From Elusimicrobiota bacterium (GTDB lineage: Bacteria; Elusimicrobiota; UBA8919): a stretch of DNA of 31,410 nucleotides. Made by a program: the position numbers and the translations under genes. The stretch lies in contig JBDRIG010000002.1 of the NCBI GenBank assembly GCA_043816185.1, forward strand, positions 1-31,410, in the 5' to 3' direction. A model generated the notes under the pieces. That model was given only the letters and a program-made list of their open reading frames with translations, was not told where the DNA came from and ran no database searches. Of the stretch, positions 2,480 through 30,112 are shown in pieces (positions within the stretch are counted from its first letter, which is position 1; each line of letters begins with the position of its first letter).

Positions 2480-2514
2480 GTTACAGGTCTTCCGAATATT
2501 GTGAGGATAAAAAT

Positions 2515-2946: not shown

Positions 2947-2949
2947 AAA

Positions 2950-4317: not shown

Positions 4318-4492
4318 CACTACTTCGTTAGGTTCAGTTCGTCATTCAGACTGTGTCGCAATGAGCTAAAAAGTTGCATTTTTATAGAAGATAGTAACTG
4401 ATGGTAAAATATGGTACTGCAATCCAACACTAGATGGTAAAAGATGGATTGCGACACAGTCTGATTGCGAGGGCGAAGCCCGAAGCAATCTC
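4318..4492 (+). repeat. REP-like palindromic repeat (GTCATTGCGAG...GAAGCAATCTC type) interrupted by a MITE-like element
   Basis: 4318-4346 matches 20893-20921 at 25/29 nt; the repeat resumes at 4464 as attgcgagggcgaagcccgaagcaatctc. Confidence 0.75.
4347..4463. mobile_element. MITE-like element copy 1 (117 bp)
   Basis: Perfect 16-bp terminal inverted repeats CAGACTGTGTCGCAAT (4347-4362) / ATTGCGACACAGTCTG (4448-4463), flanked by direct ATT. Confidence 0.8.
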
Positions 4493-4619
4493 GTCTTCAA
4501 CATATGGGATTACCACGGTGGTTGGCACAAGCCGACGAGTTTAGTGAATTTATTTTGCTTTGTGGGATTGCCAATGCTGTTCTTTAATCTCTTAGCCCTA
4601 TTTTAGTGGAGGTACAAAA

Positions 4620-6113
4620 ATGAGTATAAAATTAAAATTCACATTTTTTATTTTTGCTGTTCTGATTTTGGTTGTTATGACAATTTCTTTAGGTATATTT
4701 TTTGTACAAAGAGATTTGTTAGAAGAACAATTTAGTCGTAATCGCGAAAAAATATTTAAGGATTTCTGTTATAGTTGTAACGAAGCATTGATTGTTAAAG
4801 ATGAATTGTTGGTATTGAATATATTAAAATCACTCATGGAAACCCATAAACCTCAAATTGTTTATGCTGGGTATATTTCTCCAATTAATGTGAAACTTTT
4901 TAAGGCACGAGACGAAAGTGGAGAATTTAGTTTTGCACATAGAATATCCCCTGTCAAAAAACAAGCAGTAGAAATTTTTACTTCCTCAGACAAAGAGGAA
5001 ATTTATGAATTTAGCCAGTTGCTTGAAGAAAAAGATTCATGCTTAGGCACAATAAAAATGGGTTTTTCGCAGAGTTATCTCGATAGTCAGGTTAAGCAAT
5101 CAACATTATCGGTTACAAAAAAAATATTTAACATATCTATTCTATCATTAATTATAAGTTTAATTCTTGCCTATATCTTGGCGATTTATTTAGTTCACCC
5201 AATAAAAAAACTTTCTGCTGTAGCGTTAGAGTTAGGTTCGGGAAACTTAAATGCTAGAACTGAAATTGAAAGAAATGATGAAGTTGGGCAACTTGCTAAA
5301 ACATTTGATGAAATGGCAGAAAAGTTAAAACAATTAGATGAGCTAAAAGATAGTTTTGTTTCCAGTGTTTCGCACGAGTTGCGTTCTCCACTTTCTGCTA
5401 TCGATGGATATGTCGATTATTTAAATGATGGTGTCGAGAAATTGCCATTAGAAAAGCAAAAAAAAGCATTAACAATAATTAAAGATTCTATAGGTCGTCT
5501 GACGGTTTTTATAAATAACATACTTGATATTGCAAAAATAAAGGCCGGTAAATTCGATATGCATAAAATACCTATTAAAGCAAAAGATACAATCAGTGAA
5601 ATCGTTTCACTTTTTGAACAAATGGTGATTAAACAACAAAAAACGATTGAGATTGTAGTTCAAGAAAATCTACCTTTAATATGTGCAGACCATGAAAAAA
5701 TAAAGCAAGTTATCATTAATCTTTTGGGTAATGCGATGAAATTTACAGAAACTGGTGCCAAAATAACAGTTGCTGCAAATTTAGTAACTGCGAAAGCATT
5801 AACCACTTACAAGTTAAAAAAAGAAGACGAAAACTCGATTAAAGACATTACGGGCAATTTTGTTGAATTCAGGGTTTCTGATACTGGTTATGGTATGCCC
5901 GAAAATGAATTAGATAAAATATTTGACAAATTTTATCAAGTTGGTAGCACGACACCTAAAAAACCTAAAGGAACTGGGCTTGGACTTTCAATTGCCGCCG
6001 AAATAGTTAAACTTCACGGTGGCGTAATAGGGGTTGAGAGTGAATTAAGTAAGGGTTCAACATTTAAGTTTGTAATTCCTGTGTACAAAATGCCAGAACG
6101 GACTGCATCGTAA
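4620..6113 (+). CDS. Membrane sensor histidine kinase (2 TM, HAMP, HisKA, HATPase_c)
   Basis: Two hydrophobic segments; HAMP (PIKKL..DEVGQLAKTFDEM); H-box SVSHELRSPL; N-box NLLGNAMKF; DTGYG; GTGLGL. Confidence 0.95.
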   Translation: MSIKLKFTFFIFAVLILVVMTISLGIFFVQRDLLEEQFSRNREKIFKDFCYSCNEALIVKDELLVLNILKSLMETHKPQIVYAGYISPINVKLFKARDESGEFSFAHRISPVKKQAVEIFTSSDKEEIYEFSQLLEEKDSCLGTIKMGFSQSYLDSQVKQSTLSVTKKIFNISILSLIISLILAYILAIYLVHPIKKLSAVALELGSGNLNARTEIERNDEVGQLAKTFDEMAEKLKQLDELKDSFVSSVSHELRSPLSAIDGYVDYLNDGVEKLPLEKQKKALTIIKDSIGRLTVFINNILDIAKIKAGKFDMHKIPIKAKDTISEIVSLFEQMVIKQQKTIEIVVQENLPLICADHEKIKQVIINLLGNAMKFTETGAKITVAANLVTAKALTTYKLKKEDENSIKDITGNFVEFRVSDTGYGMPENELDKIFDKFYQVGSTTPKKPKGTGLGLSIAAEIVKLHGGVIGVESELSKGSTFKFVIPVYKMPERTAS

Positions 6114-6175
6114 GAAGGCAATATTGTGAGTTTATTAAATCCATCTTTGGCATATGGCAATCTCAAACAAAAAAA

Positions 6176-7108
6176 ATGATAAAAAATAAAAAAGTTTTAG
6201 TAATTGAAGATGACTACTCAATCCGGGAAATGTTGAAGGATATTCTTATTGAGACAGGTTTTGATGTTGTAAGTGCAACCAATGGTAGAGAGGGAATTAA
6301 AGAAATATATCAGGAATGTCCTGATGTTGTTCTACTTGATTGTATGATGCCTGAAATGAATGGTTATGAGGTTGTTGAGACTATAAGAAAAGATCAACTG
6401 TTTGTTAATTTGCCGATGATTATGTTAACAGCAAATTCATCAGAAGCGGATCAAGTAAAAGGTATCCAACTCGGTGTTGATGACTATATGACTAAACCAT
6501 TTAGTAGACAAATACTGATTGCAAAAATAAAAACAATGCTAAATAGGAAGGAAATCAGTATAAACGCAAACCCACTTACACAGTTGCCTGGAAATGTCCT
6601 TATCTACAAGGAAGTGCACGAAAGATTAAACGGAAAAATACCATTCGCTTTTTTTTATATTGATTTAGCAAATTTCAAAAGTTATAATGATTATTATGGA
6701 TTTCAAAAAGGTGATGAGATAATAAAACATACCGCCGATATCTTAGTTTCCACAGTAAAAAAATATGGCGAAAATAATGATTTTGTGGGTCATATAGGTG
6801 GCGACGATTTTGTTGTTATATCGACTTCGGAAAAGTATAGAGAAATTGCAGAAAAAATAATAGAACAATTCGATAATTCTATCAAGAATTTTTATAGTCA
6901 AAAGGATTATGAGAATAGTTATATTGTTACTACGGATAGACAAGATAATTTACAAAAATTTTTTATAATGACAATCGCTATTGCTTGCGTTTCCACATTA
7001 AAAACTAAGATTATACATTATGGCCAGCTAAGCGAAATTGCCGTACAATTAAAAAAATATGCAAAACAATTTAATAAAAGTGCTTTTATGGAGGAGCAAA
7101 GAAAATGA
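6176..7108 (+). CDS. Response regulator with GGDEF (diguanylate cyclase-like) domain
   Basis: REC (LLDCMMP, KPF) then NPLTQLPGN, IDLANFKSYNDYYGFQKGD and HIGGDDF. Confidence 0.9.
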   Translation: MIKNKKVLVIEDDYSIREMLKDILIETGFDVVSATNGREGIKEIYQECPDVVLLDCMMPEMNGYEVVETIRKDQLFVNLPMIMLTANSSEADQVKGIQLGVDDYMTKPFSRQILIAKIKTMLNRKEISINANPLTQLPGNVLIYKEVHERLNGKIPFAFFYIDLANFKSYNDYYGFQKGDEIIKHTADILVSTVKKYGENNDFVGHIGGDDFVVISTSEKYREIAEKIIEQFDNSIKNFYSQKDYENSYIVTTDRQDNLQKFFIMTIAIACVSTLKTKIIHYGQLSEIAVQLKKYAKQFNKSAFMEEQRK

Positions 7109-7791
7109 TGAGAGAATATAAAATATTAGCAATTGATGACGATGAAAACATTTTGTCTTTAGTATGTGACATATTAGAGAAGGAAGATTATATTGTTATT
7201 ACTGCTACCAATACGGATGATGGTTATAAAAAAGCAATAAGTTCACATCCAGATTTGATAATGTTAGATATAAAGATGCCTAAAATTGGTGGGATTGAAT
7301 TGTGCAGATTGCTTAGACAAGATCCAATAACAAAAATAATACCGATAATTATGCTTACCGTAGAATCAATGGAAGTAGATAAAATTATAGGGTTTGGAAT
7401 AGGTGCAGATGATTATATTACAAAACCTTTTAGTTCAAAAGAGTTTGTAGCAAGAGTTCGTTCTTTACTTAGGAGAAGTGTGTGTTCCAAAGAATCGCCA
7501 GAAGTAATAAAATCTGACAATCTTGAGATAAATACTATCTCAAAAACAGTTAAGATAAATAAAAAGGAGATCCATCTAAGGCCAAAAGAGTTTGACTTAT
7601 TGATTTTTTTTATAAGGAAACACAATATGGTATTGACAAGGCAACAATTGTTAGAGAGTGTATTTGGTTATAATGTTCCAGTACCTTCAAGGACGGTTGA
7701 TACCCACGTAAAGAATTTACGTCATAAATTAGGTTCTTTTGGTAAAAAAATAAAAACCATATTTGGGTTCGGATTTAAGTTTGTTCCATAA
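7105..7791 (+). CDS. OmpR/PhoB-family DNA-binding response regulator
   Basis: REC (MLDIKMP, GADDYITKPF) plus winged helix (LRPKEFDLL, RTVDTHVKNLRHKL, TIFGFGFKF); ATGA overlap with previous gene. Confidence 0.95.
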   Translation: MMREYKILAIDDDENILSLVCDILEKEDYIVITATNTDDGYKKAISSHPDLIMLDIKMPKIGGIELCRLLRQDPITKIIPIIMLTVESMEVDKIIGFGIGADDYITKPFSSKEFVARVRSLLRRSVCSKESPEVIKSDNLEINTISKTVKINKKEIHLRPKEFDLLIFFIRKHNMVLTRQQLLESVFGYNVPVPSRTVDTHVKNLRHKLGSFGKKIKTIFGFGFKFVP

Positions 7792-8432: not shown

Positions 8433-9140
8433 GTGATGAAAACAATTCCCGACAATTCTGTTGATTTAATTTTTGCCGACCCGCCATTTAATATAGGTTT
8501 GAAATATGATAATTACAACGATAAAAGGAGTTATGAAGATTATTATAATTGGTCGGTATGTTGGATAAGGGAAACCTACAGAATATTAAAAAAAACTGGG
8601 ACAATATATATTGCGATAGGTGATGAATTTGCTGCTGAAATAAATTTAATTTTGAAAAAAATTGGTTTTAATTTCAGAAATTGGATAATTTGGTATTACA
8701 CTTTTGGACAGAATCAAAGAAAAAAATTTAATCGTTCTCACACACATATTTTATATTTTACAAAAGATAGAGAAAAATTTATATTTAACGATAAGGATGT
8801 AAGAATACCATCGGCAAGGCAACAGATATATCATGATAAAAGGGCACATCCTCTTGGCAAAGTACCTGATGATGTTTGGGAATTTGCGAGAGTTTGCGGT
8901 TCATTCAAGGAAAGAATCAGTAATCATCCTTGTCAAATGCCGGAAGCACTATTAGAAAGAATTATTAAAACAAGTTCAAATGCCGGCGATATTGTTTTAG
9001 ACCCGTTTGGTGGGACAGGAACCACAGTAGCCGTTGCAAAAAAATTAAAAAGAAATTATATTACGACAGAGATTTCTAAAAATTATTTTAATGTAATTAA
9101 AAAAAGATTGGAAGGCAGATTCGACAAAATTGCAGTTTAA
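8433..9140 (+). CDS. Orphan N4/N6 DNA methyltransferase, beta class; true N-terminus probably upstream of 8433
   Basis: Motif IV DPPF near the N-terminus, HPCQMP, motif I DPFGGTGT near the C-terminus; frame is open back to 8325 and includes NKVIEGDCIEV. Confidence 0.9.
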   Translation: MMKTIPDNSVDLIFADPPFNIGLKYDNYNDKRSYEDYYNWSVCWIRETYRILKKTGTIYIAIGDEFAAEINLILKKIGFNFRNWIIWYYTFGQNQRKKFNRSHTHILYFTKDREKFIFNDKDVRIPSARQQIYHDKRAHPLGKVPDDVWEFARVCGSFKERISNHPCQMPEALLERIIKTSSNAGDIVLDPFGGTGTTVAVAKKLKRNYITTEISKNYFNVIKKRLEGRFDKIAV

Positions 9141-11402: not shown

Positions 11403-14129
11403 ATGGCAAAAAAGTATGTGTATTTTTTTGGTAAAGGGAGTGCAGATGGAAATGAGAAGATGAAAAATCTTCTTGGTGGCAAAGGCGCAAATCTTGCTGA
11501 GATGGTAAAAATCGGACTTCCGGTTCCAGCAGGTTTCACGATTACTACTGATGTTTGTGTAGCATACTACAAAAACAAAAAAAAGTATCCGCCCGAGTTA
11601 AAAAAGCAAGTTGAAGCAGCACTTGTCAAAGTTGAAAAATTAATGGGTTACAAATTCGGCGATAAAGAAAATCCACTTTTGGTGTCCGTAAGAAGTGGCG
11701 CAAGAAAATCAATGCCAGGAATGATGGAAACAGTACTGAATGTTGGGCTTAATAACGAAACTCGTGAAGCGCTTATTAAAAAAACTGGTAATCCGCGTTT
11801 TGTCTATGATGCACATCGTCGACTTATTCAGATGTATTCGGATGTTGTGATGGAAAAAGCAGCTGGAATTGAGCCGAAAGAAGGTTGTGGAATTCGTCAG
11901 CAACTTGAAAAAGAACTTCATAAGATGAAACAAGAAAAAGGTGTGAAACAGGATACCGATTTGTCAGCAGATGACTTGAAAAAACTTGTTGAGATTTACA
12001 AATCAAAGATAAAAGAAGTACTCGGTAAGAATTTTCCTGAAGATCCGATGGAACAATTGTGGGGTGGAGTTGGTGCCGTGTTTCAGTCGTGGCAGGGCAA
12101 AAGAGCGATTTCTTATCGTCGGATAGAAAATATTCCGGATGAATGGGGAACTGCAGTAAATGTTCAAGCGATGGTTTTTGGAAATATGGGCGAGTCGTCG
12201 GCAACTGGTGTGGCTTTCACAAGAAATCCTGCAACTGGTGAAAAAGTTTTTTATGGTGAATGGCTTGTAAACGCACAGGGTGAGGATGTCGTCGCTGGTA
12301 TCAGAACTCCAAATCCGATAAACGAAGAAGGAAAGACGGAACAAAATAAAAAATTTCAGTCACTCGAAACATCAATGCCAGAACTTTACAAACAACTTTA
12401 TGTATTTCAGAAGAAACTTGAAAATCACTATCGGGACATGCAAGATATTGAATTTACGATTCAGGAAGGAAAACTTTGGATGTTGCAGTGTCGAGTAGGA
12501 AAAAGAACTGGCCCTGCTGCTATTAGAATAGCAGTTGATATGATAAAGGAAAAATTGATTACGAAGGATATGGCAGTGATGCGTGTAACGCCGTCTCAAC
12601 TTGACGAATTTTTACATCCAATCATTGACCCTGCTTCCGAAAAAAATTCAAAGCCGATAGCAAAGGGACTTCCAGCTGGTCCAGGTGGTGCGACCGGAAT
12701 GATTGTTTTTTCTGCGAACGATGCGGTTGCATGGAGAAAAAACGGGAAGGATGTTATTTTAGTTCGTGAAGAAACCAATCCTGAAGATGTTGAAGGTATG
12801 CGTGCTGCAAATGCAATTTTAACTGCGCGTGGTGGAATGACATCTCATGCTGCACTTGTTGCTCGTGGCTGGGGAAAATGTTGTGTCGTCGGTGCAGGAG
12901 AACTTCATGTTGATTATAAGGAGAAGACGTTGAAAGTTGCCGACACAGATATTGTGTTAAAGGAAGGCGATTGGATAACTCTCAATGGTTCGATGGGCTA
13001 TATCTATAAAGGGCAACTTCCGATGATAAAATCCGCTGGTGAAAATCCGTATTTTATTGAGTTTATAAAAATATGCGATTCAATAAGAAAGTTAGGTGTA
13101 AGAACAAATGCCGATACGCCCGAGGATGCAAAAAAAGCGAGAACTTTTGGTGCAGAGGGAATTGGGCTTTTTAGAACCGAGCATATGTTTTATGGAAAAG
13201 GTTCGGAGCAGCCGTTGTTTTTACTCAGAAAAATGATAATTTCTGGTACACTCGAAGAAAGGAAAAAAGCACTTTCTGAACTTTTCCCGTTCGTTAAAAA
13301 CGACATCAAAGGTACGCTTGCAGCGATGGAAGGTTTTCCAGTAGTTATCCGTTTATTAGATCCGCCGCTTCACGAATTTGTTCCCAAAGGAAGCGAAGAA
13401 AGGAAAAAACTTGCAGATGCGATTGGAATATCCGACGAAGAGTTTAACAAAAGAGCCGACGCTTTGCACGAATCAAATCCGATGATGGGACACCGCGGTG
13501 TTCGTCTGGGAATCACATATCCAGAAATTACAGAGATGCAGGTTCGTGCGATTCTTGAGGCGTCGGCGGAATTAATAAAAAATGGTAAAAAAATTATTCC
13601 GGAAATTATGATTCCTGTGGTTGGAACCGTCAACGAGTTACAAAATCAAAAAGAAATCGTTGAGAAAATTTACGGTGAAGTGCTGAAAAAATTTGGCATA
13701 AAAAAAATCCCGTATCTATTCGGTACGATGATTGAAATTCCGAGAGCGTCTTTAACGGCTGGAAAAATCGCCGAGGTTTCCGAATTTTTCTCTTTTGGAA
13801 CGAATGATTTAACCCAGATGGGATTCGGTTTTTCCAGAGATGATATTGGCGGATTTATGCCAGATTATTTAGAAAAAAAAATTCTTCCCTGTGATCCATT
13901 TGCGACGATTGATTTTGAAGGTATAGGTGAATTGATAAAAATCGGTATCGAGAGAGGCAGGAAAACCAAAAAAAATCTTGAAGTGGGAATCTGTGGCGAG
14001 CATGGTGGAGATCCTGAGTCGGTAAAATTTTGCCATCGTGTGAAAATAGACTACGTTTCCTGTTCGCCGTTCAGGGTTCCAATTGCAAAACTTGCTGCTG
14101 CTCAGGTGGTTATAGAGGAAAAAAAATAA
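11403..14129 (+). CDS. ppdK: Pyruvate, phosphate dikinase
   Basis: LLGGKGANLAEM, SVRSGA, GGMTSHAA phospho-His motif, GICGEHGG, VSCSPFRVP. Confidence 0.98.
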   Translation: MAKKYVYFFGKGSADGNEKMKNLLGGKGANLAEMVKIGLPVPAGFTITTDVCVAYYKNKKKYPPELKKQVEAALVKVEKLMGYKFGDKENPLLVSVRSGARKSMPGMMETVLNVGLNNETREALIKKTGNPRFVYDAHRRLIQMYSDVVMEKAAGIEPKEGCGIRQQLEKELHKMKQEKGVKQDTDLSADDLKKLVEIYKSKIKEVLGKNFPEDPMEQLWGGVGAVFQSWQGKRAISYRRIENIPDEWGTAVNVQAMVFGNMGESSATGVAFTRNPATGEKVFYGEWLVNAQGEDVVAGIRTPNPINEEGKTEQNKKFQSLETSMPELYKQLYVFQKKLENHYRDMQDIEFTIQEGKLWMLQCRVGKRTGPAAIRIAVDMIKEKLITKDMAVMRVTPSQLDEFLHPIIDPASEKNSKPIAKGLPAGPGGATGMIVFSANDAVAWRKNGKDVILVREETNPEDVEGMRAANAILTARGGMTSHAALVARGWGKCCVVGAGELHVDYKEKTLKVADTDIVLKEGDWITLNGSMGYIYKGQLPMIKSAGENPYFIEFIKICDSIRKLGVRTNADTPEDAKKARTFGAEGIGLFRTEHMFYGKGSEQPLFLLRKMIISGTLEERKKALSELFPFVKNDIKGTLAAMEGFPVVIRLLDPPLHEFVPKGSEERKKLADAIGISDEEFNKRADALHESNPMMGHRGVRLGITYPEITEMQVRAILEASAELIKNGKKIIPEIMIPVVGTVNELQNQKEIVEKIYGEVLKKFGIKKIPYLFGTMIEIPRASLTAGKIAEVSEFFSFGTNDLTQMGFGFSRDDIGGFMPDYLEKKILPCDPFATIDFEGIGELIKIGIERGRKTKKNLEVGICGEHGGDPESVKFCHRVKIDYVSCSPFRVPIAKLAAAQVVIEEKK

Positions 14130-14375: not shown

Positions 14376-14404
14376 TTGACAAAAAAAATAATTTTTGATA
14401 TAAA
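14376..14404 (+). promoter_or_regulatory. Sigma-70-type promoter for the FliFG-MotAB locus
   Basis: TTGACA (14376-14381), 17-bp spacer, TATAAA (14399-14404) with TG at the extended -10 position; AAGGAG before ATG 14458. Confidence 0.7.
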
Positions 14405-14457
14405 TAAATGTGTACTAAATGTAGGAGATAAAATTTGTAACAAGGAGATATAGTTCA

Positions 14458-16362
14458 ATGCTAAAGTTTTGCAATCGCTTATTATTCTTGTGTGTTGTAT
14501 TGTTTACATTTGTTGTATTTAATTTAGCGACGGATTTATGTGCGCAATTCTCATCACCAGAGCAGGATGTAGAACTTACTCGCAGGGAAAATGCTGTTTC
14601 TGAAAAAATTCAATCGCAACTCGAAGAACTCTTAGGTAATTATTATAAAAAGGAATCGTTTGTGATTGATGTAAAGTCAAAGCTCGAGAGAATACCTGTA
14701 AGAGAAAAGTCTCCAAAAGCGAAAAAAGTAGAAAAAGAAGAGAAAGAAGAAATTGAGTTGCCAGGTCTACCCGTAGTTTTACCACCAGAAATTGTTGACG
14801 AAGGAGATGAAAAAGAAAAATTTGACATTGATCAATGGATATTTTCTGACAAAATTAGAATTAAATATCTGGAAATATCGATTTTATTGGACGAGAAAAT
14901 TTTTTTAAATAAAGACGAAGATTTAGATTTTATAAAAATGGTTTCAAGAGCAAGAGCAAAGCTCGATGAAAGTAGGGGAGATAGCTTAATTATAAAAGCA
15001 ATACCTTTTCCACAGCCCATTGAAACATTAAATACAACAGCAGTAAAAGAATCGACAGAACCAACAAAACTCAAAGAATCCAAAAATCCGTTACTTACGC
15101 TGCGTCCATATCTATTGTATGGTTGTATAGTTCTAATGTTGTTACTCATCGCAATTGTTTTATTGCAAGTAATAAATATCTCTAAGATGAAAAAAGTATT
15201 GCAAGATGTGTTTTTGCAACTTGGGCTTCCACAAGCATCAAAGACCCAAACTGATAAAATTCAATTATCTGAAAAACAATCACAAAAAATACCTGTTGTT
15301 AATAAATTAGAAACACTAAACGGGCAAAAGAACGGGCAAAAAATTTTTTTTAATGAGTTGAAGCAATTTGTGGTTAATGCAATTATCGGTAATCCACAAT
15401 TGGCGAGTGAGATATTTAAGAAGTGGGTTGACACAAATAAAGACGATGGCGTGCATCAATTTGCTGAATTATTGAAGGCAACTGACCCACAACTTGTAAA
15501 AATGCTTTCCGAATATATTACCGATCAAAATATTATATCAAGCGTTGAGCATACTATAAATCAAGATGTTCCAATTGATGAAAAAGTCGTTGTAGAAATT
15601 TTTAAAAGGTTTAGGGAATCCTTCAGAGAAAAAGAGACATCAAAATCGGCAAAAACTAAATTTAACGAAGAGGAAAGTATGTTTCAATTTTTGAAACAGA
15701 TTACGCCTGAACAAATATTCCATATTATCAAAGATGAACCCGTTACCATTATTGCAATAGTATTAGCACAATTATCGCCAGAAGTTGCAAATTCTTTGCT
15801 TGTTGGTTTACCGATAGAAAAACAATCGAGAATCCCTGTTGAAATGGCTAAACTTAAAAAAGTACCCATATCTGCATATAGGGAGATAGCAGACAAACTT
15901 GCAAAAAAAGCACTGGAAGTTGAAAAAATTAAATATGTGGCAACCGATGGCGTTGAAGCATTAATAAATATGTTGGAACAATCGTCGCCAGAAAAAGAAC
16001 AGGAAATACTTACATCTATATTAGAATATGATATTATGATTGCAAAGGAACTTCGCAAAATTTATATTACATTTGAAGAAATTTGTAAACTACCTGATAG
16101 ATTTCTATCAGAACTGTTCCGAGAATTTAATCGTGACGTAGTGATAAAAGCATTAGTTGGATCGTCCATGAAAATAAGAGAGAAAGTTTTGAATAACCTA
16201 CCACCACGGATAAAAATAGTTGTAGCTGACGAATTAAAAATAATTGAAGAATCTGGTGAAGTGCAGACAGAAGAAATTCAAAAGGCTCAAAAAACGATAA
16301 CCCAAAAAATTCGTGAGTTGGCAAAAACTGGTAAGATAGACCTGAAAAAACTCATGAGTTAA
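14458..16362 (+). CDS. fliG: FliF(RBM3-TM-C tail)-FliG fusion protein, putative rotor ring
   Basis: N-terminal hydrophobic signal/TM; FliF-like IKYLEISILLD..LDESRGDSLIIKAIPF; TM at about aa 218-240; FliF-tail-like NPQLASEIFKKW; FliG-M-like FQFLK..EPVTIIAIVLAQL; FliG-C-like ITFEEICKLPDR..KALVGSS..REKVLNNLPPR..AQKTITQKIRELAKTGKI. Confidence 0.82.
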   Translation: MLKFCNRLLFLCVVLFTFVVFNLATDLCAQFSSPEQDVELTRRENAVSEKIQSQLEELLGNYYKKESFVIDVKSKLERIPVREKSPKAKKVEKEEKEEIELPGLPVVLPPEIVDEGDEKEKFDIDQWIFSDKIRIKYLEISILLDEKIFLNKDEDLDFIKMVSRARAKLDESRGDSLIIKAIPFPQPIETLNTTAVKESTEPTKLKESKNPLLTLRPYLLYGCIVLMLLLIAIVLLQVINISKMKKVLQDVFLQLGLPQASKTQTDKIQLSEKQSQKIPVVNKLETLNGQKNGQKIFFNELKQFVVNAIIGNPQLASEIFKKWVDTNKDDGVHQFAELLKATDPQLVKMLSEYITDQNIISSVEHTINQDVPIDEKVVVEIFKRFRESFREKETSKSAKTKFNEEESMFQFLKQITPEQIFHIIKDEPVTIIAIVLAQLSPEVANSLLVGLPIEKQSRIPVEMAKLKKVPISAYREIADKLAKKALEVEKIKYVATDGVEALINMLEQSSPEKEQEILTSILEYDIMIAKELRKIYITFEEICKLPDRFLSELFREFNRDVVIKALVGSSMKIREKVLNNLPPRIKIVVADELKIIEESGEVQTEEIQKAQKTITQKIRELAKTGKIDLKKLMS

Positions 16363-16412
16363 AAAGATTTCCAATAATGTTTTGATTAGATAGTATTTAA
16401 AGGAGAGAAATT

Positions 16413-17486
16413 ATGAATCATTTAAAAAAAATATTTGCAGTTTTTTTGTTAATGAGTGTTGTTTTGTGCGAAACAACATTTGCGAGGAATCTAGTTAATG
16501 ATGATGAAATTATTGAAGCGTTAGAAACGTCTTTAGCCACCTTACCTACCAAAATTACTAGACTTAAATCTGAAGTAAGACGAATTAATTTTTATTCTAT
16601 ACGAGTAGATAGAGAGGATATTTCACAACAACTCCTTGAACAAATTCAAGGTAAGATAGAGTCAGCATTTCTTAAAATAGGAAGACCAATTTTAGTATTT
16701 ACACCAGAAATAAAACCAATGAAAATTATCTCAACAGAGGAGGGTATCAATTTTGCATCTGGATTTCGGTCGACAAGTGAGATAAAAGAGATTTCAGAAA
16801 AACTTAAATTAGATGGATTTTTGAAGGGAGAACTGATTTTAACTGGGAATAATATGTTCTTGAACTTGCGAATATTTGAGTCCAACTCTATGGCGGTTGT
16901 CTGGAGCGAAGAATTTTCAACCGTAACAGTGCCAGATTCAAAATTTACGGGTATTGATTTTGGATTTGGTGTTGCAGGATTACTTCTCTCAGAAACGCCA
17001 ACAAGTATAGGTGCCGACATTCCACAATACGCAGATTATTATATCGCCGATATAAGAATTACCCAGAAAACACCTGTTGGTGAAAAAATGAGGTTTGTAC
17101 TAAACGGTGGAGTTCTTTGTCTCAACGACGGCATAAAATCATCGCTTTCAACTATTGTTTCTTCCGAAAAAAATTTTGGGTCGTTTAGTTTCATTCTTAG
17201 AACTGGAATAAGAGTTTCCATTATTCCTATACTTATGCAGGAAGCGGGTCCAAAAAGAGACTGGTTGGCAACAGAAATAACCTTTGGTAGAATTTTTGGT
17301 GCTGGAACTAATGGTTTAAGCACATTAGGAATAAAAGCGGAATCAAATATTGCAAAAGATATTTCCATTACCTTCGGCGTTTCGTTTATCCCAATAACAA
17401 AAGTTTCCTTTGCAACTGGTAAGGAAGTAAATGTAGGGGGTTTTTCATATGAAATATCGCTCTTGCGGTTTAATTTTATGCCTTAG
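16413..17486 (+). CDS. Exported hypothetical protein; putative CsgG/FlgO/LpoB-like alpha/beta domain plus C-terminal outer-membrane beta-barrel-like region
   Basis: Signal peptide ending TFA; LKLDGFLKGEL..LNLRIFESNSMAVVWS; Gly-rich alternating strands ending ..EISLLRFNFMP; AGGAG RBS. Confidence 0.65.
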   Translation: MNHLKKIFAVFLLMSVVLCETTFARNLVNDDEIIEALETSLATLPTKITRLKSEVRRINFYSIRVDREDISQQLLEQIQGKIESAFLKIGRPILVFTPEIKPMKIISTEEGINFASGFRSTSEIKEISEKLKLDGFLKGELILTGNNMFLNLRIFESNSMAVVWSEEFSTVTVPDSKFTGIDFGFGVAGLLLSETPTSIGADIPQYADYYIADIRITQKTPVGEKMRFVLNGGVLCLNDGIKSSLSTIVSSEKNFGSFSFILRTGIRVSIIPILMQEAGPKRDWLATEITFGRIFGAGTNGLSTLGIKAESNIAKDISITFGVSFIPITKVSFATGKEVNVGGFSYEISLLRFNFMP

Positions 17487-18426
17487 TAGTATTGCGTTTT
17501 TTACATTGGTTTATGCCGAAGAACAACCCAAAACAGGTACGGCTGCAATAAAAGAATTACCATCAAAAGAATTGTCGTCTGACCAAAAAAATTCTAACTA
17601 TCAAGACACATTAGAAATTTTAAAGAAATTAACGGAACAATATAAATTTCTCTCTACTAAAATTGATATACTCGCTACTAATTATAAAAGCCTGTGTGAA
17701 GATTTTTCTGTAATTGTAAGTTCTTTTACAGATTTGTCGTATCAGGAAAATACAACAAGATCGTTAGTAGCACTGTCTGAAAGTTACACCAATTTGAACA
17801 GTCGTATTGCTAAACTTTCTAAAAAAGTTGATGAGCTTTCATATGCTCAAAGTGACAGTAGAAATAAAGAATTAGAATCGAGCGGCGAGAAAAATGATGG
17901 GGAATCTGACGACAAAAAATCAAAATATGTAGCAAGAAAAAGTGGTCCGATATCACAATATGTTAAAATAAAATCTAAAGATGACGGGCGAGAAATAGAA
18001 TTATGTCTTGATCCTGCATACGTAGATATGAATATTGATTTCACTCGGAAAACACCAAATACAACGACAAGACAGGAAGAAACAAAAGACGTGGAAGATA
18101 TAGTAAGTGATGTTGTAAAATCTGTAGAACGTTCGTTACAGGAAAAATTACCGAAAAAACAACAAGAAACAACTAATCAGCAAGCTATCGGTAAACTACA
18201 TAAAGCACAAAAACTTTATTATGCGAAAAAATATAATGCTGCAATGGATGCAGTACAGCTGTCTTTAGAAAATCAGGAAACAGCAGTTGGTTATGCGCTG
18301 AAAGGTTCGCTATATTTTACGCTTGGCGATGTTGATTCGGCGATAATATGTTGGGAATCTGCATTACAATTAGATCCAACAATGGAAGAAGTAAAAACAG
18401 CAATTTATAAATTTAAGAGGCGATAA
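17449..18426 (+). CDS. Exported coiled-coil plus C-terminal TPR protein
   Basis: Signal-like N-terminus ending VYA-EE; heptad-rich segment; AQKLYYAKKYNAAM..GYALKGSLYFTLGDVDSAIICWESALQLDP TPR pattern. Confidence 0.8.
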   Translation: MKYRSCGLILCLSSIAFFTLVYAEEQPKTGTAAIKELPSKELSSDQKNSNYQDTLEILKKLTEQYKFLSTKIDILATNYKSLCEDFSVIVSSFTDLSYQENTTRSLVALSESYTNLNSRIAKLSKKVDELSYAQSDSRNKELESSGEKNDGESDDKKSKYVARKSGPISQYVKIKSKDDGREIELCLDPAYVDMNIDFTRKTPNTTTRQEETKDVEDIVSDVVKSVERSLQEKLPKKQQETTNQQAIGKLHKAQKLYYAKKYNAAMDAVQLSLENQETAVGYALKGSLYFTLGDVDSAIICWESALQLDPTMEEVKTAIYKFKRR

Positions 18427-18670
18427 ATTAGTTTTTGTTTGCTTCTTGTTTGTTGTGGCTTGTTTGCTGTGTACGGTTCGAAATTAGATAATTACAAGAT
18501 TAAAAAGAGGTTTATCTGTGCGGTTTTAGTCTTTAACCTGTCTCGCTACAAAGTAAGTTCACATAATTTTCATATAGTCATAATTTAATTATCTGTCGTC
18601 AGTATCTGTCGTCGAGCAGGCTTACCTGATTGGTTTAGTCTGGCGGGTTAGTTTTTAGAGGTTAAAAAAT

Positions 18671-19492
18671 ATGTCAACAACACTACTTGGTATAGTTATG
18701 GGATTAGGAATGACGATTTTTGCTATCATCGGTGTATCGCAACAGGATTCAAGTTCAATTGGAAGTCTTGTAAATATGTATTTAAATATGCCGTCTTTTT
18801 TAATGGTTTTTGGTGGAACAATTGCATCAACATTAGTAGCACATCCGTTTTCACATTTAGTTCGTGGATTTACGGCATTTTTTGTTGTATTTACTCGCAA
18901 AGAATTCGATTGGATAAAAGCAATTAATACAGTTTGTGAATTTAGTCAGGTATATATACAAAAAGGAATTCCGGGATTAGAAGAAAAAAATAAAACACAT
19001 AAAACAAAATCTCTTGTCAAAGACGGTATAAGTATGTATGTAAACGGATATAAACTCGAAGAAGTAAAAGAATTTTTGGAAACAACCATTGAGAGAAGAT
19101 ATGATCGTGAAATGATTGATTATTACGTTTTTAGAACAATGGGGTCGGCAGCACCAGCGTTTGGTATGGCTGGAACGCTTGTTGGCTTGATATTTATGCT
19201 TAGGGTAATGAGCGAATCGCCAGATAAGATGGGGCCATTTTTAGCAATTGCACTAATTACTACATTTTATGGTCTGATATTAGCACATCTTGTATTTAAT
19301 CCGATAGGAAATAAACTCAAACAACAGGCAGCGATAAATGTACGGGTTGGTACGATGGAAATAGAGGGAATTGTACATATTTTGAAAAAACAGCACCCTG
19401 TCTATATTAAAGATCAGTTGTCAAGTTATATCCCACCGAAAGAACGATTACAACTTTTCAAAGAGGAAAAAAATCCCTCAATAAAAAAATAA
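18671..19492 (+). CDS. motA: MotA/PomA-family stator A subunit
   Basis: NMPSFLMVFGGT; GIPGLE; APAFGMAGTLVGLI; MGPFLAIALITTFYG; FNPIGNKL. Confidence 0.93.
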   Translation: MSTTLLGIVMGLGMTIFAIIGVSQQDSSSIGSLVNMYLNMPSFLMVFGGTIASTLVAHPFSHLVRGFTAFFVVFTRKEFDWIKAINTVCEFSQVYIQKGIPGLEEKNKTHKTKSLVKDGISMYVNGYKLEEVKEFLETTIERRYDREMIDYYVFRTMGSAAPAFGMAGTLVGLIFMLRVMSESPDKMGPFLAIALITTFYGLILAHLVFNPIGNKLKQQAAINVRVGTMEIEGIVHILKKQHPVYIKDQLSSYIPPKERLQLFKEEKNPSIKK

Positions 19493-19497
19493 CCTAA

Positions 19498-20196
19498 ATG
19501 GCACTACCAAAATTTGTTGATCTATATGATGAAGAAGAAAGTAACAATCAGTGGCTTCTCTCCTATTCGGATGTGGTCACGTTGCTGCTTTGTTTTTTTG
19601 TAGTTTTAGTCTCGTTTTCATCTTTGGATTTAGTTAAAGTAGAACTTTTGACTCAGCATTTTACAAAAACTAAAAAAATGACCTTAAAAGACCTTCAGCA
19701 AAAAATTCAGGAATTTGTTGATTTTGAAAAACTACAGAGCGATATTAAGGTTAATTTAACATCGAGAGGGGTAGAGATAAATTTTAAAGATAAACTTTTA
19801 TTTGATTTAGGCGATGCTAAACTTAAAGAAATAGCATCTCCTATATTAACGAAAATATCAAAATTGCTAAATTATCAAGAAATTGCACAGAGAAGAATTT
19901 CTATAGAGGGTCATACCGATAAACTACCAATAAAAAGTAAAATATATCCATCTAACTGGGAATTATCGTCTGCACGAGCAGCAAGCGTAGTAAAATTTTT
20001 TATTGATCAGGGCTTAAATAGTAGAAGATTTGAGATATCGGGCTATGCAGATAATTTACCGTTAAAGATTCAAACGGATAGAATTTTGGGACAACCAGAA
20101 AATAGACGTGTTGTAGTAGTAATTACTCCAGAGTCATACTTAATAAAAATGGTGCGTAAAGAAATATCACTATCTGCAAACAAAACTCCTCAGTGA
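19498..20196 (+). CDS. motB: MotB-family stator B subunit with OmpA-like peptidoglycan-binding domain
   Basis: WLLSYSDVVTLLLCFFVVL with the essential Asp; IEGHTD; PSNWELSSARA; NRRV. Confidence 0.95.
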   Translation: MALPKFVDLYDEEESNNQWLLSYSDVVTLLLCFFVVLVSFSSLDLVKVELLTQHFTKTKKMTLKDLQQKIQEFVDFEKLQSDIKVNLTSRGVEINFKDKLLFDLGDAKLKEIASPILTKISKLLNYQEIAQRRISIEGHTDKLPIKSKIYPSNWELSSARAASVVKFFIDQGLNSRRFEISGYADNLPLKIQTDRILGQPENRRVVVVITPESYLIKMVRKEISLSANKTPQ

Positions 20197-20299: not shown

Positions 20300-20830
20300 C
20301 TAACTTCTCTCAAAAAATATGTTTTTACCAGTTGTGGAAAGAGGAATTCCAAATGCAATTTTAACTTCGTCGCCGAGTAATTTATTTTTTACAGCAGTGT
20401 AACCAGCAGTATACATAATTCTATTATCAATATAATTGTTTGCAGCAACACCAACAGCAGAACCAATCGCAATTCCCAAATCACCTGGATTATAAGCACA
20501 CATACCTTTTAATTCCTCGCATTTTTTACATAATTCAAATCCACAAAATCCGCAGTTAAGTCCTCGTGTCGAAATCTTCGTCCCAATTAAAACAACCGCA
20601 GTTGCTTTTTTTAAGCATTGAGCATCCCTTAAAAATGTATTTGTTCTGTATCCTGTATTTGCAACTTCAACCATTTTTTCTGAAAGATCCTCAATATCTT
20701 TGTCGGTAAAAATCATTGTTACAATATTGTCTATTCCTTTTGCCTTAGGTGCAGTTCTTGCCGCAGCACACATCAGGTTTGCAATTGTTATAATTCCATT
20801 TTTTTCTGCATCAAATGATTGAATTTTCAC
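20300..20830 (-). CDS. DUF2148-like ferredoxin domain-containing protein
   Basis: AARTAPKAKG, NCGFCGFELC..C cysteine cluster, DLGIAIGSA, DNRIMYTAG, KNIFFER; GTG start after GGAGG. Confidence 0.85.
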   Translation of the reverse strand: MKIQSFDAEKNGIITIANLMCAAARTAPKAKGIDNIVTMIFTDKDIEDLSEKMVEVANTGYRTNTFLRDAQCLKKATAVVLIGTKISTRGLNCGFCGFELCKKCEELKGMCAYNPGDLGIAIGSAVGVAANNYIDNRIMYTAGYTAVKNKLLGDEVKIAFGIPLSTTGKNIFFERS

Positions 20831-25132: not shown

Positions 25133-25822
25133 ATGACATTAAAAGAATTCAAAAGTAGATTGACAGAAATTGAGAAATTATGTTTTGTGCAATCAAAGCG
25201 AAAAGGTAGCACGGGAATTGGGTACACTCTTGAAATGCTTTTGAATATTAAAGAAAACAACATTAAACTCCCCGACCTTGGAGAGATTGAGTTGAAATCA
25301 AAACGAAAAAATGTTTTCACATTTGTCACAATGTTCACTTTCAACAGTGGAGTTTGGAAAATCCATCAATCAGATGTTATCAAAACTTACGGCTACAAAG
25401 ACAAGCAGGAACGAAAGGCATTGAAATGTTTTGTTCGTGTTACACCAAATGCACAAGGACTTTATTTGAAAGTAACAAAGCAGTCGCTTCAAATGTATCA
25501 CACCGACAAAACTTTGATTGCTGAATGGAACGCAACAAATTTATTGCAATACTTTTCAGCAAAAGTACCCTCACTCATTTTAGTTCTTGCGGACACAAGA
25601 AAAAATGAGGATAATAAAGAAGAATTTCATTACAACGAAGCATACTTGCTGAAAACTCCAAGCAAAACGGGACTGCTAAAATTGATAGAACAAGGTTTCA
25701 TGGTTGTAGATTTGCGAATGCATTTAAAGTCATCGGGTGCAGTTAGAAATAGAGGAACGGCATTTCGTGTTGAAGAAAAAAATCTTATTCAATGTTTTGC
25801 CGAAAAAATAAAGTTGCTATGA
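25133..25822 (+). CDS. MvaI/BcnI-family type II restriction endonuclease
   Basis: GSTGIGYTLEMLLNIKENN..PDLGEIELKSKR..TMFT (PD-(D/E)xK), ending VDLRMH..RNRGTAFR; adjacent methyltransferase. Confidence 0.82.
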   Translation: MTLKEFKSRLTEIEKLCFVQSKRKGSTGIGYTLEMLLNIKENNIKLPDLGEIELKSKRKNVFTFVTMFTFNSGVWKIHQSDVIKTYGYKDKQERKALKCFVRVTPNAQGLYLKVTKQSLQMYHTDKTLIAEWNATNLLQYFSAKVPSLILVLADTRKNEDNKEEFHYNEAYLLKTPSKTGLLKLIEQGFMVVDLRMHLKSSGAVRNRGTAFRVEEKNLIQCFAEKIKLL

Positions 25823-27069
25823 AAAAATATACAGACAATTCATGGGATTTCAGTACAGCGGACACAAAAACATTCACTCACTGTTTTCACAATTATCCAG
25901 CAATGATGATACCTCAAATTGCAGGAAGATTGATTGACTGTTTAGGAAAGAAGAATGATGTTTTATTTGACCCATATTGCGGAACAGGAACTTCAATTGT
26001 TGAAGCAAACTTGCGAGGTATAAGTGGAATTGCAACGGACATAAATCCTTTAGCCCGACTAATCACAAAAGCAAAGTCAACTATAATTCCATTACAAGTT
26101 TTAGATTTTTATTTAAAGGACTTCAACGATTTTATTTTTCAATACAAATTCGGAATTAAAAGTGAAACAATAGAGATTCCAGATTTTCCAAATATTGATT
26201 TTTGGTTTACTCCGCAGGTGAAACAACATTTAGCAAGGATTAAAATCTACATTGATAAAATTGAAGATAAAAATGTGATTGCCTTTTTCAAAGTTGCGTT
26301 TAGTGAAACTATTAGAGAAAGTTCACTGACAAAAAATAGTGAGTTCAAATTAGTGCGAATGAAAGATAGGCAACTAAGAAAATTTTCTCCAGATGTTTTC
26401 ACAATTTTTGAAAGAAAAATTTTCAGAAATAGAAATGGTTTGAAAAATTTTATTGAGCAAGTTAAAACACATAAGAAAAATCAGATTTGTGACTTTAATA
26501 CAATTAACGACATCCCAAAGAAAATTATCGAGGAAGGAAGCATTGATTTGATTGTTACTTCGCCACCATATGGAGATAGCAAAACTACTGTTGCATATGG
26601 ACAATTTTCGCGACTTTCGAATCAGTGGTTAGGACTTAAAGATGCAAGTCAGGTTGACAATAATTTAATGGGAGGCAGACGGGCAAAGAGTTATGAAAAG
26701 TTCGATGTGAAAGAATTGGACAAACAAATTGAGAAAATAGGGAACAAAGATGAGAAGCGAGTATTGGATGTAATTAGTTTTTATCACGACTACAAAACTT
26801 CAATTTCAAATGTTGCAAAGACAATTAAACCAGGAGGTAATATTGCATATGTTGTCGGAAACAGACGAGTGAAGGATGAGGAACTTCCAACAGATATTGT
26901 TACTGCAAAGTTTTTTGAGCAGCACAATTTTACACATATAGAAACAATCATTCGCAACATTCCGAGCAAGCGGATGCCAAAAGAAAACAGTCCGACAAAT
27001 ATTGCTGGTGCAAAAAACACCACTATGAATTGCGAGTATATTGTCGTGTTGAAAAAGCCGAACTGCTAA
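25819..27069 (+). CDS. N4-cytosine DNA methyltransferase, alpha class (M.MvaI-like), cognate to the endonuclease
   Basis: HNYPAMMIP; motif I DPYCGTGT before motif IV TSPPY; ATGA overlap with endonuclease stop. Confidence 0.88.
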   Translation: MKKYTDNSWDFSTADTKTFTHCFHNYPAMMIPQIAGRLIDCLGKKNDVLFDPYCGTGTSIVEANLRGISGIATDINPLARLITKAKSTIIPLQVLDFYLKDFNDFIFQYKFGIKSETIEIPDFPNIDFWFTPQVKQHLARIKIYIDKIEDKNVIAFFKVAFSETIRESSLTKNSEFKLVRMKDRQLRKFSPDVFTIFERKIFRNRNGLKNFIEQVKTHKKNQICDFNTINDIPKKIIEEGSIDLIVTSPPYGDSKTTVAYGQFSRLSNQWLGLKDASQVDNNLMGGRRAKSYEKFDVKELDKQIEKIGNKDEKRVLDVISFYHDYKTSISNVAKTIKPGGNIAYVVGNRRVKDEELPTDIVTAKFFEQHNFTHIETIIRNIPSKRMPKENSPTNIAGAKNTTMNCEYIVVLKKPNC

Positions 27070-29119: not shown

Positions 29120-30112
29120 ATGATAGATAATATTAAAATTAGACCGAGAGTAATGAAAACGCTATCAGAGATTGATTATCTACAGGGCAAAATTACAGAT
29201 AGTTTAACAAAAGGAGTGTTCACTCCGATAGTTCAAAAAGAATCAGCGATAATAATGGCTTATGCCTCAACAACAATTGAAGGGAGTACTTTAACGCCAC
29301 AAGAAGTCAAACAAGTAGCAGATGGTGAAAGACCACGAAAGGCAGAGATTCATATACAGATGGTTAAAAATTATCTGGATGTTATTCGATGGATAAGGCA
29401 AAAAGAAAGCACAAAAATTATTACAGAAGACAATATTTTTAAATTGCATAGAATTATTGGTGAAAAAGCAGTTGCTGACGGTCCCGTTGGTGAATATAGG
29501 AAAGTTCAGGTATATGTCGGAGACCACACGCCGCCTTCATCTGAAAAAGTGCCATATCTGATGAAAGAGTTTTTAGAATGGTTGAATAACAAAAGCCATC
29601 AATACCATCCTGTTTTAAGTTCTGCAATTGCCCATTTTGAGATTGCAGCAATACATCCGTTTCGTGATGGCAATGGTAGAGTAGCCAGAGCATTAGCCAG
29701 TTGGGAATTATATCGTCGTGGGTTTGATACCCTGCATGTTTTTACGCTTGACGATATTTTGTTGGAAAACAGAAAATTCTATTATCTACAATTAAGCAAC
29801 GCCAGAAAACCCGGCGGATTGACTGATTGGTTGGAATATATTAGCGATATTACAGCCGAAGGTCTTGAACGAACATATAATCGTCTAACATCGGCGCAGG
29901 CAACGGCAAAGAAACTGCCTCCGCTTTCCGAAACGCAGAAGAGATTGCTAATAATATTATCGCAAGATAGTCCAAAAACAATAAAACAGATTATGTCGGA
30001 ACTTTGTATTACCCGACAGGGTGTCTACAAGGTATTAAGTCAGCTACTAAAAACAAAAAGAGTTATATCTGTTGGTACCAGACGTAACAGGCAGTATTCA
30101 ATTACAATTTGA
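29120..30112 (+). CDS. Fic-family AMP transferase with C-terminal winged HTH
   Basis: Canonical HPFRDGNGRVAR; N-terminal inhibitory-type STTIEG; C-terminal TIKQIMSELCITRQGVYKVL. Confidence 0.93.
   Translation: MIDNIKIRPRVMKTLSEIDYLQGKITDSLTKGVFTPIVQKESAIIMAYASTTIEGSTLTPQEVKQVADGERPRKAEIHIQMVKNYLDVIRWIRQKESTKIITEDNIFKLHRIIGEKAVADGPVGEYRKVQVYVGDHTPPSSEKVPYLMKEFLEWLNNKSHQYHPVLSSAIAHFEIAAIHPFRDGNGRVARALASWELYRRGFDTLHVFTLDDILLENRKFYYLQLSNARKPGGLTDWLEYISDITAEGLERTYNRLTSAQATAKKLPPLSETQKRLLIILSQDSPKTIKQIMSELCITRQGVYKVLSQLLKTKRVISVGTRRNRQYSITI

Follow-up and report, generated by a model that had tools for sequence, protein, structure and literature searches.

A candidate flagellum-independent rotor–stator cassette in Elusimicrobiota

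A five-gene cassette and its products

The stretch of DNA considered here (hereafter the window) is an entire 31,410-bp contig (C2) of an Elusimicrobiota genome assembly (GCA_043816185.1) that amounts to 1.44 Mb in 112 contigs and is 94.3% complete and 0.5% contaminated. At 14458-20196 on its forward strand lie five closely spaced open reading frames (ORFs) in one orientation, which encode, in this order, a fusion of FliF and FliG sequences, two exported proteins, a MotA and a MotB (Table 1). A first-pass annotation, made from the sequence alone, had seen five co-oriented genes between ppdK and a convergent DUF2148-like gene, a layout with which the ORF and Pfam coordinates agree, and had taken their products to be a fused FliF-FliG rotor, an intact-looking MotA/MotB stator and two exported proteins unlike any canonical flagellar part. 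These assignments hold. The FliG domains of the rotor are recognized by Pfam, and its homology to the third ring-building motif (RBM3) of FliF by hhalign, PF08345 and Foldseek; MotA has PF01618 and flagellar matches in the PDB, and MotB has a plug and an OmpA domain; the two exported proteins do carry leaders, with a tetratricopeptide repeat (TPR) as the only family over cut-off and FlgO below it.

The C-terminal 340 residues of the gene 1 product, P0001, constitute a complete FliG comprising the N, middle (M) and C-terminal (C) domains. FliG_M (51.9 bits) and FliG_C (80.9 bits) both exceed their Pfam cut-offs in P0001, and FliG_N, FliG_M and FliG_C are found by Pfam in 20/20 orthologues. In a search of PDB sequences, residues 311-627 align with Salmonella FliG 18-321 and residues 408-629 with Thermotoga maritima FliG (E 9e-21). 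The periplasmic part, of 190 residues, matches no Pfam family over cut-off in P0001 itself, in which PF08345 (FliF 'C-terminal', corresponding to the RBM3/collar region) reaches 14.2 bits at aa 132-184, under its cut-off; the same family is found in 19 of the 20 orthologues, with a best E of 3e-7. Comparison by hhalign with five canonical FliF from flagellated Elusimicrobiota matched P0001 32-186 to FliF 225-382 with a probability of 94.9% and an E of 4.5e-8. These five canonical proteins do carry PF01514 (YscJ_FliF, the SctJ-like RBM1/RBM2), which does not appear among the best 25 of 34 families that the 20 orthologues match at E ≤ 1. RBM3 is a ring-building module, and RBM1/RBM2 house the export gate in flagella.

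The AlphaFold2 (AF2) model of P0001 has a mean pLDDT of 72 and a pTM of 0.30, so that its domains are usable and their mutual arrangement is not. Between the two transmembrane (TM) helices, the model has a helix (38-62), two strands (68-78 and 133-145), a second helix (152-167) and a third strand (176-182), an order of secondary structures that, as modelled, is that of a ring-building motif. The insert at 82-128 stands where, we presume, FliF has its β-collar. When the model was searched with Foldseek, FliG occupied ranks 1-13 (full-length FliG 3hjl at E 1.2e-9) and ranks 14-37 were FliF MS-ring/RBM3 chains such as 7bk0_B, 8ftf and 6sd1 (probability 1.00, TMt ~0.5). Behind TM2, a disordered linker leads into a near-invariant helix (FYELRQLMVTTLVGNP...W; columns 298-323 of the 20-sequence alignment), and aa 299-324 match by BLASTP the C-terminal end of an unfused FliF-like protein encoded in locus L009 of the FCB group (see below), so that a FliF tail and a FliG are joined end to end in P0001. 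Invariant in 20/20 sequences are LPGLP (101-105, inside the insert), RGD (173-175) and FP (184-185), together with K576, R584 and D591 in FliG-C. Where T. maritima FliG has EHPQ, which we take to be the FliM-binding motif, P0001 has DEPV, and this replacement fits the absence of FliM. In the alignment with the torque helix of T. maritima, R584 is matched by R and D591-E592 by D-E, and the charge pairs described in E. coli are MotA R90-FliG D288-D289 and MotA E98-FliG R281 (PMC12505986).

The stator genes come last in the cassette. P0004 matches PF01618 (MotA_ExbB) with 80.8 bits, and all ten of its sequence matches in the PDB are flagellar MotA/PomA (the best being Aquifex 8gqy at 4e-34, with 6ysf, 6ysl and 8bri also among them); its TolQ score is 18.7 bits against a cut-off of 221. 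P162 and P211 of MotA do not vary. Glu104, conserved in 8/8 orthologues, stands opposite the A-L-E Glu of Aquifex MotA in the alignment. In P0005, Pfam finds MotB_plug (53.6 bits, 1.7e-14) and OmpA (58 bits, 1.3e-15), and W19, Y23, the channel Asp D25 and the peptidoglycan-binding motifs NWELS..R and NRRV are invariant in 8/8 orthologues. Five of these eight MotB (L043, L046, L047, L048 and L049) have a C-terminal extension that ends in a P0003-like TPR repeat, which favours some contact between TPR and stator; the MotB of the window has no such extension.

Both proteins encoded between rotor and stator, P0002 and P0003, have N-terminal hydrophobic leaders. The AF2 model of P0002 (pLDDT 82.6) consists of an α/β domain (aa 30-171) followed by eight long strands (aa 179-356). 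Foldseek relates the first to LpoB (4q6l, TMt 0.67-0.68) and the N-domain of TolB, and the strands to the eight-stranded barrels of OmpA, Ail and OmpX (TMt 0.5-0.66); as modelled, the N-domain thus has a fold of the LpoB/TolB-N type. FlgO (PF17680) scores 16.2 bits on P0002, its cut-off being 22.6, and is found at E ≤ 1 in 12/19 P0002 orthologues, under the cut-off and with a best E of 0.0013. The family has no Pfam model and is small: at thresholds of E ≤ 1e-3, 1e-10 and 1e-30 it comprises 134, 64 and 17 representative clusters, respectively (of 1.84 billion); a profile search with the P0002 alignment returned 12 proteins, one of them a new relative, and those with names are all from Elusimicrobiota. 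P0003 has one TPR repeat over cut-off (TPR_1, 28.4 bits vs 27.8), and no other family match over cut-off was found in either protein. In an alignment of eight P0003 orthologues, the leader is followed by a coiled-coil/low-complexity region that varies, by a motif at aa 168-197 that is conserved (consensus QQYVKLK...LDPxYVDMNLD) and by the C-terminal TPR. The Cys in the leader is not conserved, which suggests that P0003 is probably not a lipoprotein. A complex prediction for the periplasmic domain of P0001 with mature P0002 and P0003, run without controls, gave a score of 0.01 (mark, 0.32), which speaks neither for nor against a contact.

The genes are tightly arranged. Genes 2 and 3 overlap by 38 nucleotides (nt) in the window, by 38-53 nt in six of the seven other Elusimicrobiota loci described below and by 89 nt in the seventh (L046), which suggests that their translation is coupled. 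The 244-nt spacer ahead of motA is specific to the window, this gap being ≤ 57 nt in the seven other loci; no repeat copy of it was found in the genome and no match in Rfam. The G+C content of the cassette stretch (0.32-0.34) equals that of its flanks. As to the sigma-70-like promoter claimed earlier, the site is present at 14376-14404, but such matches occur at chance frequency in this AT-rich stretch (26 found vs 26.5 expected from shuffles), for which reason it is a candidate only, if a plausible one.

Table 1. Coordinates of the cassette, of the domains encoded by gene 1 and of the bounding genes
Feature	Position	Strand	Description
ppdK	11403-14129	+	Left boundary of the five-gene cassette
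Sigma-70-like site	14376-14404	+	TTGACA and TATAAA 17 nt apart, with a TGn; 54 nt upstream of gene 1; candidate promoter
Gene 1 (P0001, 634 aa)	14458-16362	+	FliF(RBM3)-FliG fusion, putative rotor subunit
TM1/signal-anchor (aa 8-26)	14479-14535	+	Hydropathy 2.26; model helix 2-31
Periplasmic RBM3-like ring-building domain (aa 38-182)	14569-15003	+	α-β-[insert 82-128, invariant LPGLP]-β-α-β, RGD...FP at end
TM2 (aa 223-241)	15124-15180	+	Hydropathy 3.01; model helix 211-255
FliF C-tail-like helix (FYELRQLMVTTLVGNP...W) into FliG N domain (aa 293-400)	15334-15657	+	BLASTP, FliG_N, alignment
FliG middle domain (aa 417-489)	15706-15924	+	Pfam 8.8e-14; alignment to 1lkv
FliG C-terminal torque domain (aa 521-629)	16018-16344	+	Pfam 1e-22; invariant K576, R584, D591
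Gene 2 (P0002, 357 aa)	16413-17486	+	Exported; LpoB/TolB-N/FlgO-like domain aa 30-171 and predicted 8-strand outer-membrane β-barrel aa 179-356
Gene 3 (P0003, 325 aa)	17449-18426	+	Exported; coiled-coil/low-complexity region, motif aa 168-197, C-terminal TPR aa 250-325
Spacer gene 3-motA	18427-18670		244 nt, non-coding
Gene 4 (P0004, 273 aa)	18671-19492	+	Flagellar-type MotA
Gene 5 (P0005, 232 aa)	19498-20196	+	MotB: plug, channel Asp25, OmpA-type peptidoglycan-binding domain
DUF2148 gene	20300-20830	-	Convergent; right boundary of the cassette

Elsewhere in the window there is a dense signalling cluster (184-7791). Two of its proteins, of 406 and 376 aa, each have three tandem receiver domains, and a further one is a single-domain receiver; with them are a sigma-54 activator, a histidine kinase with HAMP, a REC-GGDEF protein and a regulator of the OmpR type. 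A gene for an MvaI/BcnI-family restriction endonuclease overlaps a DNA methylase gene (25133-27069), a separate N6/N4 methylase gene (8433-9140) lies upstream of this pair, and a Fic-domain gene is found at 29120-30112.

Conservation of the cassette and the genomes that carry it

A set of six flagellar marker families (FHIPEP/FlhA, Bac_export_2/FlhB, YscJ_FliF, FliMN_C, Flg_bb_rod and Flagellin_N) was searched for in the 94%-complete genome of the window and gave 0 matches each, although every one of these searches matched in the controls E. coli, B. subtilis, Caulobacter and Thermotoga (4/14 control genomes). The FlhA/FlhB export apparatus is thus not detected in this genome (fliPQR were not searched for). 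The earlier remark that the window holds no further flagellar genes can therefore be extended, for six marker families, to the assembly as a whole, and the genome-wide search by hidden Markov models that had been called for found no complete flagellar set to which the fusion might belong. FliG_C is found in two places in the genome, gene 1 and one on contig C93, and MotA_ExbB in four. FHIPEP is present in 9/401 Elusimicrobiota genomes and in 0/8 of those with a full-length orthologue of P0001.

Matches to P0001 (E ≤ 1e-5) are widespread, occurring in 159/401 Elusimicrobiota genomes and in 89/123 genera, but those of full length are confined to eight genomes from six families (G000, which is that of the window, G010, G168, G118, G014, G007, G001 and G272), all of them 90-99% complete. 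Another two matches lie at contig ends and are fragments, and all the others cover only FliG M-C; ORFs of ~650 aa in many other Elusimicrobiota genomes likewise match only this part of P0001. In 7/7 of the other full-length loci, genes for rotor, barrel, TPR protein, MotA and MotB follow one another in this order and in one orientation, either overlapping or separated by small gaps. Identity to the window proteins is 33-54% for the rotor, 29-50% for the barrel, 27-56% for the TPR protein (BLAST local segments), 40-70% for MotA and 41-64% for MotB. The genes that flank the cassette in the window flank it in none of these seven loci. The association of five genes, whose conservation the first-pass annotation had left to be checked, is thus kept in differing surroundings and with its functional residues invariant.

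A version in which the rotor is unfused is found between housekeeping genes in four loci (L009-L012) from metagenome-assembled genomes (MAGs) of the Fibrobacteres-Chlorobi-Bacteroidetes (FCB) group, one of them from Neomarinimicrobiota. The series there consists of a protein with a CarboxypepD_reg domain, two TPR proteins, MotA, MotB, a FliF-like protein of 512-546 aa that has PF08345 only, and FliG as a protein of its own (310 aa). FHIPEP was found in 0/4 of these MAGs, whose completeness is not established. Adjacency to ppdK, considered as a possible link, was set aside as coincidence: it is seen in the window and ppdK also adjoins the FCB cassette in 2/4 loci, and it is seen in none of the seven other Elusimicrobiota loci. 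Fused proteins with 24-30% identity to P0001 include one from Fibrobacterota, and rows of the ESM Atlas from Balneolota, Bdellovibrionota, Myxococcota and Bacteroidota provide leads only. A tree of FliG M-C was built from 34 rows, comprising eight window-type rotors, eight distant fused proteins (P0025-P0032), the four FCB split FliG, seven canonical FliG (P0033-P0039), P0056 (see below) and, from 21 paralogue loci, the six with an RBM3 match, the other 15 being left out. In this tree, one clade (support 100/98) unites the window-type and the distant fused forms with the split forms of the FCB group, apart from the seven canonical FliG; as the tree has no root and few canonical rows, it does not give the direction of evolution.

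More divergent relatives of the rotor also exist in the phylum. The genome of the window has a second FliF-FliG-like rotor, the 459-aa P0056, encoded on contig C93 (33-14165), which matches residues 54-629 of the rotor family profile (probability 96%, E 4e-9) and has neither the FliG N domain nor equivalents of R584 and D591. Near it are genes for a PorP/SprF-like barrel fused to TPR (568 aa), two MotB/OmpA-like proteins, a CHU_C-ending protein, a PorV/UPF0164-like protein and a LysM protein, as well as a 1506-aa ORF with immunoglobulin (Ig) repeats, open at the start of the contig and with a weak type IX secretion system (T9SS) tail (E 0.003). On C24 (1-16509) lies the MotA paralogue that matches, between a TamB-like gene and an Ig-repeat ORF of >3409 aa that runs off the contig end; with one Ig-repeat ORF leaving its contig and the other open at its start, C24 and C93 may be neighbours. 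In a third type of cassette (L029, L034 and L038, in genomes G066, G186 and G056), a 505-520-aa rotor with an RBM3-like N-domain is immediately followed by MotA (254 aa) and MotB. These paralogues, rather than the cassette of the window, suggest a family of rotor-stator modules tied to surface proteins. Two observations concern T9SS or gliding components: a 1743-aa ORF on contig C112 (37089-42320) has four collinear sub-threshold matches to SprA, a model of the T9SS translocon (TIGR04189; 61, 54, 39 and 15 bits, the cut-off being 200) and no match to SprA in Pfam, and GldM (TIGR03517) has 0 matches in the genome of the window and equally 0 in all 14 control genomes.

A putative rotary module and competing explanations

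If the cassette works as we propose, P0001 would form a ring resembling the MS-ring, with its FliG parts arrayed as a ring on the cytoplasmic side, and wall-anchored MotA5B2 units would push the torque helix of FliG by means of ion flow through the D25 channel. K576, R584 and D591 of this helix would face Glu104 of MotA, and the ring would turn. With FliM and FliN undetected, such a motor would probably be one without switching. The lack of RBM1/RBM2, of an export gate and of a rod implies that its output would have to leave via the periplasmic face of the RBM3 ring, where the insert with its invariant LPGLP is the obvious candidate for a periplasmic contact. The periplasmic face of the ring, P0003 and P0002 would together link the motor to the outer membrane, the two exported proteins either carrying mechanical work there or holding the stators in place. 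As a first guess, the output might consist in moving or remodelling a component of the outer envelope or surface, as in surface motility, secretion or outer-membrane maintenance, rather than in turning a filament.

That the cassette is functional and independent of a flagellum seems to us highly probable. As a whole, its reading as a flagellum-independent rotor-stator module is one that we favour with reasonable, though far from full, confidence; the module would rotate, with the products of genes 2 and 3 as its load rather than a scaffold, and would serve an end of the kind just named. The original proposal of a minimal ion-driven rotor-stator module used otherwise than for a filament has in this sense gained support, since no complete flagellar set turned up in the genome and the gene association proved conserved.

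Several observations nevertheless weigh against this reading. Ring formation and rotation are expected from homology, and it is synteny that would tie P0002 and P0003 to rotor or stator. In the model of P0001, the pTM is low and the 47-aa insert is disordered. E592 is variable among the 20 sequences, and in P0004 it is Ile96 that aligns with an Arg of Aquifex MotA, presumably the equivalent of E. coli MotA R90, with a basic residue at +1 or +2 in 7/8 orthologues; one of the two classical MotA-FliG charge pairs thus appears not to be strictly kept. None of the NCBIfam equivalogs for MotA, MotP and PomA or for MotB, MotS and MotD reaches its cut-off (the best scores are 150.3 bits vs 394 for MotP and 166.2 vs 283 for MotD), so that P0004 and P0005 represent a distinct subfamily of their own. 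Finally, in the family to which the window belongs, a FliG-like gene is present in 11/11 genomes and the full-length orthologue in 2/11 (G000 and G010), a patchy distribution that makes the cassette accessory.

The same rotor and stator could be at work with P0002 and P0003 as a static scaffold of the stators, the work being delivered to something encoded elsewhere. Models for a scaffold of this kind are the outer-membrane-associated H/T rings of Vibrio and the FlgP/PflA/PflB disks of Campylobacter. We consider this unlikely: it would account for the resemblance of the P0002 N-domain to FlgO, if under the cut-off, and to LpoB, as well as for the extension of MotB in 5/8 orthologues, which ties a TPR module to the stator side, but no other conserved neighbour that might be the load was seen in the seven loci, and the LPGLP of the insert, invariant as it is, points to a conserved partner at the rotor's periplasmic face. 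Less likely again, and in our view quite improbable, is that nothing rotates and that MotAB acts on FliG-like subunits in the manner of ExbBD-TonB or TolQR-TolA, as a force transducer by conformational pulling or as a gated ion channel. No gene for an axle, rod or bushing was found, P0002 has a domain of the TolB-N/LpoB type and the known 5:2 motors, as described in PMC12204202, serve many outer-membrane processes, all of which would suit a transducer. The ring-building RBM3 is, however, kept along with all three FliG domains, and the stator is of the flagellar MotA/PomA rather than of the TolQ/ExbB type, as its TolQ score makes plain.

Two readings that start from a flagellum were rejected. 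Leftover flagellar genes have been reported in non-motile species (PMC12199754), and the patchy distribution within the family would also be expected of a decaying remnant of a lost flagellum that has no present function; this is nonetheless very improbable, as all five ORFs are intact in eight genomes among which the rotor protein differs by 46-67%, functional residues are invariant, two non-flagellar partner genes are always present between flanks that differ, and FlhA is so rare in the phylum. A part played in a normal flagellum, whose other genes would be hidden in the unassembled 6% of an assembly in 112 contigs, is scarcely credible when six independent marker families, which normally occupy several loci, all have no match, when FHIPEP is missing from each of the eight carriers of the orthologue and when the fusion itself is devoid of RBM1/RBM2, which hold the export gate.

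Beyond the preferred reading of a stand-alone rotor-stator module, it is possible, although we would rather not count on it, that the cassette belongs to an undescribed class of envelope-spanning rotary machines, made of RBM3, FliG and flagellar-type MotAB, that drive an outer-membrane or surface process in unflagellated diderms. The range of such a class would take in Elusimicrobiota, Neomarinimicrobiota, other MAGs of the FCB group and Fibrobacterota, and there are leads for Balneolota, Bdellovibrionota, Myxococcota and Bacteroidota. The locus of P0056, with its PorP/SprF-TPR barrel, PorV-like protein, proteins with T9SS tails and giant Ig-repeat protein, suggests that, instead of GldLM, this class of rotors may drive a surface apparatus of a T9SS-like or gliding-like kind. 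Were the stand-alone module to be confirmed, it would mean that the flagellar torque generator can work by itself and would constitute a new way of bringing ion-motive energy to the outer envelope; were the class to be real, it would represent a living 'half a motor' of relevance to the origin of the flagellar motor. The small size of the cassette (five genes, 5.8 kb) suits it to heterologous expression, cryo-electron microscopy and cryo-electron tomography.

Relation to known systems

To our knowledge, the flagellum is the only setting in which a FliF/FliG rotor is known, with the remnant in Chlamydiaceae as an unexplained exception. No description of the cassette was found in a full-text literature search, from which subscription journals were largely out of reach and which did not cover supplements, and the searched passages of a study of MotAB evolution (PMC12505986) and of a preprint on the flagellum of the LBCA make no mention of such a system. 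The closest remark is in a 2022 preprint, according to which free-living unflagellated Elusimicrobiota have numerous homologues of motAB and fliG whose role is enigmatic (bioRxiv 10.1101/2022.07.08.499144); unlike the present analysis, it gives in the part available a list of genes, without cassette, RBM3 fusion, partners or analysis of conservation. What we describe is thus a set of known flagellar parts in an arrangement and a genomic setting that are not found described in the literature searched.

With the flagellar motor's core, the cassette has in common the RBM3 ring domain, two TM helices, the C-tail of FliF and the N, M and C domains of FliG with the Lys, Arg and Asp of the torque helix, as well as a MotA whose closest solved relatives are MotA/PomA and a MotB with plug, channel Asp and OmpA-type wall anchor. 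It differs in that FliF and FliG are one chain without RBM1/RBM2, in that FlhA/FlhB, FliM/FliN, rod and flagellin are undetected (fliPQR lying outside the search) and in the presence of two non-flagellar partners.

Fusion of the two rotor proteins has precedents, both engineered and natural. In laboratory constructs from Salmonella and Vibrio (PDB 8z4d/8z4g), as described, an end-to-end chain of FliF and FliG still forms MS/S-rings, and Salmonella fusion mutants (Thomas et al. 2001) are cited as flagellar motor structures in PMC4768692; in contrast to P0001, these constructs contain full-length FliF and are part of complete flagella. The natural fusion of Chlamydiaceae is likewise found in bacteria thought to be unflagellated (PMC4768692), and by description its architecture is similar: a signal/TM1 and TM2 enclose a shortened periplasmic region, and the part in the cytoplasm is FliG-like. 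The chlamydial protein has ~330 aa, an RBM2-like piece with an unassigned RBM and only a FliG-M-like region (Bergeron 2016, PMC4768692), and it is reported to sit with FlhA, FliL and the injectisome, MotAB not being described in the part of this source that was available. P0001, by contrast, has 634 aa, RBM3 and a full FliG, and comes with its own MotAB and outer-membrane partners.

As regards the outer-envelope partners, P0002 differs from the H-ring protein FlgO of Vibrio in that it remains under the PF17680 cut-off and has a predicted fold of the LpoB/TolB-N type. Among other ion-driven motors, we know of no use of a FliF/FliG ring in GldLM/PorLM, AglRQS-Glt, TolQR-TolA-Pal, ExbBD-TonB or ZorAB. 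These are described as 5:2 systems, GldLM/PorLM being those of gliding and the T9SS (PMC12204202, PMC9389320). The cassette differs from them in that its stator is of the flagellar branch and works, as we propose, on a FliG rotor; it shares with them the combination of an inner-membrane motor of the MotAB family with partners that span the periplasm or reside in the outer membrane, put to a use other than the turning of a filament.

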